Origin: Escherichia coli
GTDB taxonomy: Bacteria; Pseudomonadota; Gammaproteobacteria; Enterobacterales; Enterobacteriaceae
Length of the DNA: 64,000 nt
NCBI RefSeq assembly: GCF_965641715.1
Contig: NZ_OZ282453.1
Direction: 5' to 3' (one strand)
Part shown: piece by piece, positions 1-6,085 of the stretch
Position numbering within the stretch: the stretch's first letter is position 1
Layout: every line of letters begins with the position of its first letter
Program-made: the position numbers and the translations under genes
Notes under the pieces: generated by a model
Told to the model about the DNA's origin: nothing
What the model saw: the letters and a program-made list of their open reading frames with translations, nothing else
Databases searched by the model: none

Positions 1-239
1 GATATTCCCGGCGGGATCGTAGTTTTGTTGCCAGAGATTCATTGCAGGTCTCCTGGAGTCCACGCACATCGTGTAATGAGTCTGTTGCTCATCTACTTGT
101 CACACGTTGTGTAAAAGTGGCACTGCCAATTGTGTTGTGTAGGGATAATGACAATGAATGGTTAACTAAATGTTATGTATTGGCAACATTGATGTGAGTT
201 TTAATTGGGGAATTGTGAACCAGAGGTCAGATAAGCGAA

Positions 240-258
240 GAATTGGTAGGGCCAATTC
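240..258. promoter_or_regulatory. Inverted repeat GAATTGG-N5-CCAATTC; candidate GntR-family (LldR/PdhR-type) operator in the promoter region of the lldP operon, whose coding sequence would lie just beyond the window start
   Basis: Palindrome read directly at 240-258. By K-12 synteny lldP follows yibL and would be transcribed away from this region on the minus strand. Confidence 0.3.
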
Positions 259-326
259 TTGTGGGGGGAGATGTCTGGTAAAGAAAAGGGCAATCCTCAT
301 CAGAGAATTGCCCTTAGATTGTTGAC

Positions 327-430
327 CCGGAGCGCCTTATCTTGCCAGATGCTGCGTGAACACCTTACCCGGCCTATAGGAATGTGCAGAATCACCCTGT
401 AGGCCTGATAAGCGTAGCGCATCAGGCAAT
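327..430. repeat. REP/BIME cluster downstream of the adhesin gene
   Basis: Canonical REP unit gtaggcctgataagcgtagcgcatcaggcaat at about 400-430 plus a degenerate REP-like unit at about 327-380; short direct repeat ttgcccttag at 308-317 and 438-447 flanks the cluster. Confidence 0.55.
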
Positions 431-468
431 TTGGCGTTTGCCCTTAGTCACACTAACTTAATGGATCA

Positions 469-3400
469 TTACCACTGAATACCGGCACCGAGTGCGGCGG
501 AGTATTCACCCTGGCTATTGGTACTACCTTGTAATTTGTAGACCCAACGACCATTGGCGCTCACCATCGACACACCTAAAGCAACTGCCGATTCACCGTT
601 GTAAGTACCGCCACCAATAGAGGCCATGCTGGCACCTGGAGTGTAAGCCTGCGGCAGACCGGTCATTGCCATTGCAGAAGCGATACCACCGCTCAACTTG
701 CTTTCAGTTTTAGACAGTTTGTTATCCATCTCAACCATCCGCTGATCGGTGTATTGCTTCGTTTCCTGCACGCTTTGCTTCAACTGCGCGTAGTTCACCG
801 CGTCGTTGTTGTTGACGCCAGCGGAGACGTTGCTGATACGAGTCGTACCGCCGTTGCCCCCACCGAGGGTGATATTGCTATAGTCAACAGAACCATCAGC
901 GTTGGTGTCGTAACGTACACCGCCCGCCTCAGAAGACTTCAACTGTGCCACGTTAACAGCATCGGTGTCGTTTTTACCTGCGGCTACGTTGGTGATACGA
1001 CGTTGATTAGTAGATGAGCCTACAGAGATCGTATTTTCTTCGGTTGCCACAGACCCTGTACCCAGTGCGACGCTGTTATCCGCGGCAGCAATGGAACCAG
1101 AACCAATCGCGACGCTATCTTTACCCTGCGCGCTGGCATCTACACCATCGGTATTGGTCTTGAAGTACTTGGTGCTACCGGTGGTGACGATATCGCCAAT
1201 ACCGTTTTCGATATTAGTAACGCGAGTATCCAGATTAGTGACCTGATTGTTCAGGTTAGTAATGCTCTGGGTATTCTGGGAAACCTGCGCATCCGTTACT
1301 TTCAACTGACCTACGTTGACCGCATCGGTATCCGCTGAACCAGCTGCGACGTTGGTGATCTGACGTTGACCGTCTTCACTACCAACAGAAAACTCACCTA
1401 CAGAGTTCTGCGGTGCGTCCATGTTGTAGGCGGTGTAGCCAGTCTGTGCACCACGGGTGGTCTGAGAACCGTTACCCATTGCAATACTGTTTGCATGGTT
1501 TGCGCGTGCGTTACTGCCGATAGCAATGCCGTTGATCGCATCAGCCAGAACCAGAGTGTTCAAACCGATACCAATACCTGCATTACCATTAACGACAGTT
1601 TTCGCACCCATTGCCAGCGAGTCTTCACCAACGGCCAGTGAGTCTTCTGCCGTTGAGTTGGCGTGAAAGTACTTGGTTGGCGTGGTTGCGACCGCACCAA
1701 TCGCATTCTGCAATTGACGAACCGTAACGGCGTCATGGGCTTCGGAACCATCAGCTACGTTGATGATTTGGCGGTATTTACCGTCATTACCAATTGACAA
1801 TGCACCTAGCAGTTCGCCGTCAGTGGTGTCATAACCAATCACCACGCCATTTTCCGTTACGCTAGTGTCACGAGAACCTTTGGCAATCACACGGCTGGAA
1901 ACGGAGCTGCTACCCAGCGCAATACCGGTATCAACGGTGCTATTGCTGTTCTGACCAATGGCTACGCTGCTGGCACCAGACGCGACAGCGTTATAACCTA
2001 CAGCTGTAGCGCCGACACCAGAGGCGCTTGCATCGTTAAAGGCTAAACCGTTGTCGTTAGTACGAACGTAGTTGATACCAGCGCCATTTTCTTCGATATA
2101 GGTTGCGTCGGTGTTACCAGCAAGCTGATTGATGATTTGGCTGTTCTGCTCAATCATCATATTCGTCGCATTCAACTGAGAACCGTTCACTGCATCGGTA
2201 CTGTCCTCACTAATACTGCCATTAGCGACATTAGTGATGATGCTGGCTTTACCGTCATGGCTGGCATTGTAGGCTCCTGCACCGCCATTGGCAGTCTCAT
2301 CCCACAGCAGGGCGTTATCATCAAGCGCATCCAGGGCGTCACCGACGTTGTTGTACTCGGCGTTCGCAATGGTGTAAGTCGGTGCGGTGATGGTGCCGTC
2401 AGCGTTAACTTCTGCATCACCACCCAGCGCATCAGCGATGTACTTGTTGGTGGTATACAGTTGTGAGCCGTTAATAGCATCGCTGCTGGTTGCGGAGACT
2501 GTACCGGCTGCAACATTAGTGATCTTGCTGGCGGAGTTATCTTTCCCGTGACCAGCACTGAATGCACCTTTACCATCATTGGCTGTTGCATCCCACAGCA
2601 GAGCATCATCGAGAGTGGTGTCGATGGCGTTCAGGGCATCACCGACGTTATCGTAATCAGCATTAGCAATGGTGTACGTCGGCGCAGTGATGGTGCCGTC
2701 TGCATTGATTTCGGCACCACCACCCAACGCATCTACGACGTACTTATTGGTGGTATAGAGTTGCGAGCCGTTCACAGCATCAGAGCTTGTGCTTGAAACA
2801 TCCCCGTTTGCGACATCAGTGATCACGCTTGCGTCACCATTAGTACCGTGTTTGGCACTAAATTTATCTACGGAAGCGTCCCAAAGCAGGGCATCGCCGA
2901 GAGACGTGCTAAATGAGGAGTTAATCGCAGCTAGTGCATCGCCGACGTTATAATAATTTGTTTCACCGATTTTGTAGGTTGGACCGGTAAACACACCGTC
3001 AGTATTCACAGAAGCATTGCCGCCGAAGTAGGTGGCGATATTGCTGCTTAAGTCATAAAGCTGGCTGCCGTTAATGGCATCGGAACTGGTTGCAGTGACT
3101 GCGCCGTCCAGGATATTGGTGATTTTGCTGGCGGCGTTGTTGCCATGAGCAGCCGTGAAGACACCATTGTCCTTATCCCATTTCAGCGCATCTTCACCAA
3201 GGTTAGTCACCGTCTCAGTCAGGTTAGAGATGTTGGTGGTGTTAGTGGCAATATTGGTGGTATTCGTCGCCACAGCATCGTTGGTGGTTTTCAGCTGGGA
3301 GCCGTTAACGGCATCAGTGCTGCCAGCCGTCAGGTCGGCATCTTTAACGTTGGTGATTTTGCTGGTGGCGTTGTTGCCGTGAGCTGCCGTGAATACACCA

Positions 3401-5358
3401 TTGTCCTTATCCCATTTCAGCGCATCTTCACCAAGGTTAGTCACCGTCTCAGTCAGGTTAGAGATGTTGGTGGTGTTAGTGGCAATATTGGAAGTGTTAT
3501 TGGCGATATTGGTGGTATTCGTCGCCACAGCATCGTTGGTGGTTTTCAGCTGAGAGCCGTTAACGGCATCGGTGCTGTCAGCCGTCAGGTCGGCATCTTT
3601 AACGTTGGTGATTTTGCTGGTGGCGTCGGTGCCATGAGCTGCCGTGAATACACCATTGTCCTTATCCCATTTCAGCGCATCTTCACCAAGGTTAGTCACC
3701 GTCTCAGTCAGGTTAGAGATGTTGGATGTGTTAGTGGCGATATTGGTGGTGTTGGCTGCCACGGCATCGTTGGTGGTTTTCAGCTGAGAGCCATTAACCG
3801 CGTCAGTGCTGCCAGCCGTCAGGTCGCCAGCGGTGACGTTGGTGATTTTGCTGGTGGCATCAGTACCGTGTGCGGCGCTGAATGCTGTACCCTTCCAGAG
3901 GAGGGCATCATCCTTAAGGTCGCCAACGGAATCCGTCAGGTTGGTGATATTGGTGGTGTTAGTGGCGATATTGGTGGTGTTGGTTGCCACATTATCATTG
4001 GTGGTTTTCAGCTGAGAGCCGTTAACGGCGTCTTTACTGGTAGCCGAAATATCGCCATCTTTTACATTGATGATTTTGTTTTCTGCTACGGTACTGGTAA
4101 TCGTTCCATCAGCATTTTTAACAATATAATTGGCGCTGAAAGCCCCTTTAGCTGAGTCCCAGTGCAGAGTTTCATTGTCAAGGTACTGGAGTGCTTCACC
4201 AACGTTATTGAAATTCTTTTTCTTCAGTTGAAAAGACATATCCATTATTGTTCCGTTAGTAGCAACATTTGCTCCGCCTCCCAGCCTGTCTGCTACTGAC
4301 CTACTAATGGCGTAAAGTTGTGAACCGTTAATGGCTTCTTTACTGTCCGTTGAGATTGTACCTGCCGCCATATTGACGATGCGACGCTGCGCTGACCCAG
4401 AGCCTACCGATACAACGTTGTCTTCACCTGCTGTAGAGTTTGCACCAATCGCGACGGAGTTATTCCCTCCTGCAGAGGATGAACTTCCTAATGCAAGACT
4501 GTTTGATCCAACCGCAGAACTTCCTGTACCGATCGCAATAGCATTTGCGGTTGATGCGCAGCTGTTCTGGCCTAATGCGATGGTGTTTGTGTTTGATGCT
4601 TGCGCATTTTGCCCCAAGGCAAGAGCACTTGCGCCAGTAGCCGCTGCTGTATATCCCAGGGCAACAGAACCTTCACCTGTTGAATCACTGTTTGCACCTA
4701 ATGCAAGACTGTTTTTGCCTCGAGCTTTCGCTTTAGTACCTACAGCCGTCGCATTTTCAGCGGCTTCGGTCTCAGCACCTATCGCAATGGAGTTTGCTGC
4801 ACTGGCAAGTGATTGCCTGCCTAATGCCAGAGAGTCTGCGCCGTTCGCCTTTGCAGATTTTCCCAGCACTAAAGAGTTGCTGGCAGTAGTAGCAGCTTGT
4901 GCTCCGACCCCCAGGACAACTGAATATTCTGCCAGTCCGTCGGCCCCACTACCGATTGCGATCGCTCGGTTTCCGGAAGCTTCTGCCACTTGTCCGATTG
5001 ATACCGATCTCTCTCCGGTTGCGTAGCTTTGGTAACCTAATGCAGTCGAACCAATACCTGTAGCCCAGGCGTTCGCGCCCACCGCAACTGCACCAGTCCC
5101 ATTGCCCACTGAGGACGCTCGTGCACCCTGGCCAATAGCTACCCAGACATCAGTGATTTCTGTTGGATCAGAGAATGTGCCACCATCAAGTGACGCACTG
5201 GCGTTTGCCCCAAACGACGAAAACATTCCACCCGCAACCAGGGCAGAAATTAACAGCTTACTGCGACCAGATTTCTTACCACGGCTCTTCGCTGTTTCGC
5301 TGGCAACGCTATAACTGCCCGTCGCCGGATTCCAGATGACTTTAAATATTTTGTTCAT
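469..5358 (-). CDS. upaG: Trimeric autotransporter adhesin, SadA/UpaG/EhaG family, 1629 aa
   Basis: N-terminal extended signal peptide [10 protein letters not shown]...; Ala/Gly/Ser-rich head repeats (NSLALG, NSVAIG); many neck motifs S(T)DAVNGSQL; Asn/Thr-rich coiled-coil stalk; C-terminal YadA-like anchor ending ...[10 protein letters not shown]. Symbol assigned by family and position only, allele not determined. Confidence 0.85.
3140..4110. repeat. Four near-identical tandem repeat units (about 234-255 bp, 78-85 aa each) inside the adhesin stalk, with 7-aa NTTNIAT-type sub-repeats
   Basis: The string cattgtccttatcccatttcagcgcatcttcaccaaggttagtcaccgtctcagtcaggttagagatgttgg recurs at about 3165, 3399 and 3654; the antisense ORF 3145..4155 shows the same peptide three times, confirming DNA-level identity. 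Confidence 0.75.
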
Positions 5359-5401
5359 TATTGATGTTCTCTATTCCTTGATATAAGCGCAGAAGCTGCA
5401 T

Positions 5402-6085
5402 TTATTTTTTGTTTTTTCGCTGCCGAGTTTCAGCAGATTGAACAGTGTCGAACTGGAGATTGGCCATATTGATGGACAACTTCAGATACTTCAGGTTATT
5501 AGGCGAAACGCCTTTTAATGTCAGATTAATGTCTTGCCATTGACCAGGCATTAATTGCAGAGTGGAATTCAGAGCGGTATTGAAAAGTAATTGTTGCCAC
5601 TTCGCCAGAGCTTTGGCATCGGTGGGCCTTTCATTGCCCCATGTAGCATGAAAACCAATATTTGATACGGGAACGCTTAATAGGTTGACCAGCGAAATAC
5701 GAATAACGCTGCCGTTTTCAACTGCATCAATAGCCAGCACCCGACCCGCCAAACCGACAGAGCCGTTATTTAAAATGAAGTAGTGTGTTTGTGCTGGGTT
5801 AAATTCTGTGAAGACAAATTCATCCTGCTTTTCTTTAACTCCCTTCACCACACTAGCAAGCGTTTTGGTACTACTTATGATGGCAGTTTGCTGTTTTTCA
5901 AATAGTTCTATCTTGCGTTTATCTTGTTCTTGTTGTTTTTCAAGTTGCTCTATTTTACTTTTTTGCAACTCTTGCTGTTTGGAAAGATCGTCGATTAGTT
6001 TTGCTTTTCCAATATAGTCACACCCTGTCAACATGCAGAGTGGCGATATCATTAACAAGCTTAATAGTATCTTTTTTAGATTCAT
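5402..6085 (-). CDS. SadB-like inner-membrane lipoprotein, 227 aa, putative adhesin surface-display helper
   Basis: Signal peptide with lipobox LTGC followed by Asp at +2 (CDY), an inner-membrane retention signal; coiled-coil-prone Gln/Glu/Lys-rich region; start has SD aaaggaa; 43 bp upstream of and co-oriented with the adhesin gene, as in Salmonella sadB-sadA. Confidence 0.7.
   Translation of the reverse strand: MNLKKILLSLLMISPLCMLTGCDYIGKAKLIDDLSKQQELQKSKIEQLEKQQEQDKRKIELFEKQQTAIISSTKTLASVVKGVKEKQDEFVFTEFNPAQTHYFILNNGSVGLAGRVLAIDAVENGSVIRISLVNLLSVPVSNIGFHATWGNERPTDAKALAKWQQLLFNTALNSTLQLMPGQWQDINLTLKGVSPNNLKYLKLSINMANLQFDTVQSAETRQRKNKK

Follow-up and report, generated by a model that had tools for sequence, protein, structure and literature searches.

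The control region of lldP, the L-lactate permease gene of Escherichia coli, raises the question of whether a short palindrome lying upstream of the gene is a protein-binding operator and, if so, which regulator it serves. The DNA analysed here, referred to as the window, is a stretch of 64,000 nucleotides from contig NZ_OZ282453.1 (assembly GCF_965641715.1). A preliminary description of it, drawn from the letters alone, had reported the palindrome GAATTGGTAGGGCCAATTC, and this was found at positions 240–258 exactly as claimed. The sequence GAATTGGNNNNNCCAATTC occurs once in the 64-kb window, at that place, and was absent from all 100 shuffles that preserved dinucleotide composition. The perfect inverted repeat proved to be longer than had been described, with 9-bp arms on either side of a 5-bp centre (AAGAATTGG-TAGGG-CCAATTCTT, 238–260), and it is the sole perfect 9+5+9 palindrome in the window, where 0.16 would be expected. 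Perfect palindromes of the 7+5+7 type numbered eight, as compared with a shuffle mean of 4.6, and the hexamer AATTGG was found 24 times in the 64 kb, with 4 of the 24 falling inside 126–257. The palindromic shape alone is unremarkable; it is the specific sequence and the location that distinguish the element at 240–258.

Translation of window 42–1 on the minus strand gave MNLWQQNYDPAGNI, the start of lldP. The matching DNA is annotated as the lldP start in thousands of complete E. coli genomes, where it is flanked by a YadA-like/EhaG adhesin gene, and in a genome 99.8% identical over window 1–470 the genes lldP, lldR and lldD follow each other directly past the left end of the window. The cognate regulator gene lldR lies outside the window and was seen for this strain in near-identical genomes only. 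Alignment of window 1–402 with the yibL–lldP spacer of E. coli K-12 MG1655 was near base for base, with a handful of substitutions, none of them in the palindrome, and both LldR boxes are identical in the two sequences. The translation, the annotation and the K-12 alignment together identified the adjacent gene as lldP, as had been presumed.

The reverse complement of window 241–257 reads AATTGGCCCTACCAATT, which is letter for letter the published LldR box 1, or operator O1. The lldP promoter has been described as carrying two LldR boxes, AATTGGCCCTACCAATT and AAGTGGCACTGCCAATT (PMC10272880, Table 1; Anzai et al., 2023), and it showed the strongest LldR gSELEX peak, 62.9 against at most 14 elsewhere in the genome, with binding confirmed by gel shift (PMC10272880). 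The 17-mer AATTGGCCCTACCAATT has also been cited as needed for DNA binding by LldR (PMC3582500), and the distal LldR site derived from RegulonDB, the 23-bp sequence AAGAATTGGCCCTACCAATTCTT (PMC7804116, Supplementary Table 1), is identical to window 238–260. Judged by this identity with the published sites, window 241–257 is almost certainly operator O1 in the promoter of lldPRD, the L-lactate utilisation operon of E. coli, a site for a dimer of the lactate sensor LldR (Table 1). The earlier suggestion that the palindrome may be one of the LldR operators was thereby supported, as was its assignment to the AATTGG-type elements recognised by the GntR-family regulators LldR and PdhR, the site having been published for both proteins. 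With its 17-bp palindrome and its TGG-N-NNN-N-CCA core, O1 belongs to the DNA sites of the FadR-subfamily GntR type. The element is already known and is not a new discovery; its characterisation dates from 2008, and engineered lactate biosensors already make use of it. O1 does confirm that a genuine regulatory site can be picked from raw sequence by a first-stage reader. The sequence identity, the adjacency to lldP, the partner operator and the deep conservation of the two-box layout come from the present analysis; the binding of LldR, published for the identical K-12 sequence, that of PdhR and the dual repressor/activator role are taken from the literature.

Table 1. Coordinates of the features upstream of lldP in the window
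Feature	Position	Strand	Remarks
lldP (L-lactate permease), first 14 codons	1–42	−	Runs off left end of window; lldP annotation in E. coli genomes
LldR operator O2 (LldR box 2), AAGTGGCACTGCCAATT	115–131	.	lldP 5′ untranslated region, centre +30; inverted-repeat pair I1
lldPRD transcription start (+1)	152	−	Derived from ArcA site coordinates
Weak sigma-70 core promoter (putative)	158–186	−	−35 TTGCCA 186–181, 17-bp spacer, −10 AACCAT 163–158
ArcA-P site, three direct-repeat elements	159–201	+	Anaerobic repression; overlaps core promoter
"Related element" aattggggaattg	203–215	.	Lone AATTGG half-site, not an operator
TTCACA (lldP sense)	214–219	−	−67 to −62; invariant in all 24 aligned enterobacterial genera
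Perfect inverted repeat, 9+5+9	238–260	.	Equals 23-bp distal LldR site from RegulonDB
Palindrome, 19 bp	240–258	.	17-bp core 241–257 = LldR operator O1 (LldR box 1) and PdhR box; centre −97 from lldP transcription start
Intrinsic-terminator-like hairpin, then T-run	286–315	−	Conserved in K-12

The motif scan of the window returned O1 itself and a sole other near match to it, AAGTGGCACTGCCAATT at 115–131 with one mismatch, the centres of the two boxes lying 126 bp apart. This second box corresponds to LldR box 2, published as AAgTGGcactgCCAaTT (PMC10272880), and to the proximal LldR site of RegulonDB, CACAATTGGCAGTGCCACTTTTA (PMC7804116, Supplementary Table 1), which is the reverse complement of window 112–134. 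The preliminary description had missed O2 and had pointed instead to a related element, aattggggaattg, at 203–215. The element is present there, but its kinship to the operators did not hold, as it consists of one AATTGG half-site with no CCAATT partner; the second LldR operator lies not at this place but at 115–131. As a possible third operator, the 203–215 element was rejected on several grounds: it failed to match the 17-bp box even with two mismatches allowed, a SNP separates it from its K-12 counterpart, it is polymorphic among E. coli strains, it is not conserved in genera outside Escherichia, and it is absent from the published sites. Further LldR/PdhR-type boxes in the 64 kb were limited to three two-mismatch matches (2955, 19674, and 37039) against a chance expectation of 4.3; these were likewise rejected, being without the invariant TGG/CCA core and at chance level in number.

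The positions of the two boxes relative to the promoter were obtained by way of the ArcA site. An ArcA ChIP study gives the ArcA site of lldP as a 43-mer, TGGTTAACTAAATGTTATGTATTGGCAACATTGATGTGAGTTT, located at −49 to −7 (PMC3798270, supplement). It reads identically at window 159–201, so that +1 of lldPRD falls at window 152 (−). With this start, O1 occupies −105 to −89, upstream of the promoter, and O2 occupies +22 to +38, within the 5′ untranslated region. This is in agreement with the coordinates that Aguilera and colleagues reportedly assigned in 2008, namely −105 to −89 for O1 and +22 to +38 for O2. The putative sigma-70 core promoter is weak; its TTGC and TTAACCATTC segments were conserved in the 24 enterobacterial genera aligned, and a consensus promoter scan reported no strong promoter at lldP. 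A weak core promoter without a scan match fits a promoter that depends on an activator. On its upstream side, the hairpin at 315–286 (−) is predicted from the sequence to end transcription coming from the upstream gene just before O1 and so to insulate the lldP promoter. It was the only hairpin returned by the terminator scan, which did not return the palindrome at 240–258 as an intrinsic terminator.

The depth of conservation was evaluated in a footprint set of 80 lldP loci from different species, in which a box was defined as AATTGGN5CCAATT with up to two mismatches within 450 bp upstream. A box was present upstream of lldP in 77 of the 80 loci and two boxes in 58, and lldR was found directly downstream of lldP in 78. 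The density of boxes was 3.79 per kb upstream of lldP, as compared with 0.059 per kb over the other 546 kb of these loci, a 65-fold enrichment. The spacing of the two boxes was 125–126 bp in 36 loci (Enterobacteriaceae and relatives), 103–106 bp in 11 loci (mostly Acinetobacter) and 95–98 bp in 7 loci (Stenotrophomonas and relatives). The two-box layout is thus kept from Escherichia to Acinetobacter, Stenotrophomonas and Comamonas with a spacing that is clade-specific but tight, and such spacing fits a cooperative action of the two operators. This comparison adds modest support. At the level of single bases, the alignment of 24 enterobacterial genera showed the TGG and CCA of O1 to be invariant and its centre, CCCTA, to be nearly so (C8 in 24/24, C9 in 23/24, A11 in 23/24), and variation at the outer positions was one-sided. 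Symmetry of the G/C pair completing the 19-mer of the preliminary description was seen in only 5 of the 24 genera. An invariant TGG/CCA, a conserved centre and one-sided outer variation are what characterises a protein-binding site, here one whose functional core spans 15–17 bp.

The regulation proposed for the locus follows the dual repressor/activator model of LldR, which is summarised in PMC5412874 and PMC3424551. In this published model, LldR dimers on O1 and O2 repress the intervening promoter when lactate is absent, and the two bound sites cooperate, probably via a 126-bp DNA loop of about 12 helical turns. With L- or D-lactate present, the repression exerted via O2 is lifted and LldR bound at O1 activates transcription; the loop and the way in which activation works from −97 are inferred. 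The pyruvate sensor PdhR also binds O1 and represses the operon about 3-fold, and ArcA-P binds between the operators and represses under anoxia. PdhR and ArcA-P in this way add pyruvate and redox inputs to lldPRD.

The loop between O1 and O2 deserves separate consideration. Loss of HU is known to derepress lldP strongly, about 50-fold in one mutant, and the 126-bp spacing together with the strong derepression in HU mutants fits a loop. Looping is nevertheless not established, because a massively parallel reporter assay with the LldR sites placed on lacUV5 gave no synergy between the distal and proximal sites (PMC7804116). A further caveat is the spacing of 95–98 bp in Stenotrophomonas, which is a non-integral number of 10.5-bp turns. 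In its general layout lldPRD resembles the lac (O1/O3), gal (OE/OI) and deo systems, in which two palindromic operators likewise bracket the promoter at an approximately integral number of helical turns, the distance in lldPRD being 126 bp. It differs from them in that the distal operator takes on a second role, as a site of activation, once inducer is present, and in that no sign of looping by LldR was seen in the heterologous reporter.

A competitor for the palindrome is PdhR, with pyruvate-responsive repression rather than control by LldR as its main role. Of the 14 positions in the PdhR box AATTGGTnnnACCAATT, O1 shares 13, its core GGCcctACC showing one deviation from GGTnnnACC. A PdhR gSELEX peak lies at the O1 position, and the lldPRD mRNA was raised 3.3-fold in a pdhR mutant (PMC7660256); with the ArcA coordinates as a ruler, the site given in that study at genome position 3775215 maps to the centre of 241–257. 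The strength of binding, however, points the other way. The PdhR signal at O1 was 632–943 as compared with ~9,900 at the pdhR promoter, i.e., some ten times weaker (PMC7660256), whereas LldR has its strongest genomic site at the O1 promoter (62.9, with at most 14 elsewhere; PMC10272880). Moreover, the box accompanies lldR in 78 of the 80 loci, and in a two-box layout. The PdhR box of pdhR-aceEF-lpd (AATTGGTaagACCAATT) is the same kind of 6+5+6 palindrome with AATTGG/CCAATT arms, and gSELEX detected PdhR at both sites; O1 differs from it in having C for T at position 7 (GGC CCT ACC), PdhR binds O1 much more weakly, and the main ligand-responsive regulator of O1 is LldR. It is thus very improbable that the palindrome is mainly a PdhR operator. 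The roles of LldR and PdhR at O1 are not exclusive, and occupancy by both is the published view.

A reading of the palindrome as RNA was also weighed, either as the first stem-loop of a plus-strand sRNA divergent from lldP (STnc380, Rfam RF02055) or as a read-through stem. The STnc380 consensus includes aaauuGGuAGGgCCaauu as a 7-bp hairpin, its model matched window 216–324 (+) over the full length with an E value of about 1e-5, and its first hairpin aligns upstream of lldP in Salmonella. The region also folded far better than shuffled sequences on either strand (z = −4.9 and −6.7), but two palindromes fold well in silico whatever their function. The covariance model scored 37.1 bits in the window, below its gathering score of 60, and 20.2 bits in Salmonella diarizonae, where the locus matches the first hairpin only; the literature search found no report of STnc380 expression and returned only STnc3800. 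The pattern of variation among the 24 genera does not resemble that of an RNA stem, as conservation is equal in the "loop" and the "stem", the inner pairs show no variation at all, the outer variation is one-sided, and compensatory base-pair changes were absent. The sequence upstream of O1 that the outer stem of STnc380 requires could not be aligned between genera, and the T-run of the second hairpin lies on the minus strand, which means that this hairpin terminates transcripts running in the direction of lldP. The readings of the palindrome as an RNA hairpin, sRNA or terminator were accordingly left unsupported by the Rfam comparison, folding and pair counts, and the chance that it is primarily an RNA element is very small. 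Separately, it was observed that the first hairpin of the STnc380 consensus is the LldR O1 palindrome and the second is the terminator-like stem at 286–315 (window 216–324 (+); locus L004, 2755–2824 (−)). The STnc380 "sRNA" family may simply be the conserved regulatory spacer of lldP.

With the palindrome read as LldR operator O1, one conserved block near it lacks a place in the scheme. The TTCACA block sits downstream of O1 and ahead of the −35 element; neither the published ArcA site nor either LldR box includes it, and indeed it is outside every LldR, PdhR or ArcA site found in the literature. As a CRP half-site it was rejected, the TGTGA partner being absent and the partner position not conserved, and as a −35 element it was rejected for want of a conserved −10 at 17 bp; any assignment of it to CRP, as a half-site, or to ArcA, as a further repeat, is guesswork. 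A second, hitherto undescribed layer of control near O1 would be either a divergent STnc380 transcript with the operator doubling as an RNA hairpin, or an as yet unrecognised regulator acting at TTCACA, for example the one responsible for glucose repression of lldPRD. Such a layer is considered unlikely.

The known element closest to that of the window is operator O1 of K-12 lldPRD (Aguilera et al., 2008; RegulonDB; PMC10272880), which has the identical 23-bp sequence at the same position upstream of lldP, its partner O2 likewise 126 bp away, and shares the ArcA site and the core promoter. The O1 element shows no difference between the two; the upstream neighbour alone differs. Variation at the boxes was seen among other E. 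coli strains. In GmF046 (locus L083) and GMM076 (locus L084), aligned to window 257–275, the outer edge of O1 reads CCAATC where the window has CCAATT, and the DNA immediately upstream of the operator shows substitutions together with a 6-bp deletion; GMM076 further carries a C-to-T change within O2 (GTGGTACTGCC). In the window, the DNA between yibL and lldP contains, at 469–6085 (−), an adhesin gene and a DUF3251 gene, both of which are missing from K-12, where yibL is directly upstream of lldP. The adhesin gene encodes a 1629-residue YadA-like trimeric autotransporter adhesin of the EhaG/UpaG type and has internal repeats of ~230–255 bp at 3116–4078. Homology to the K-12 yibL–lldP spacer starts near window 402, within REP-like sequence. 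A weak match to the Rfam family naRNA4, a nucleoid-associated RNA derived from REP elements, was located at 334–374 (−) with 22.5 bits and an E value of 0.11; the REP-like stretch that holds it separates the adhesin gene from the terminator hairpin.
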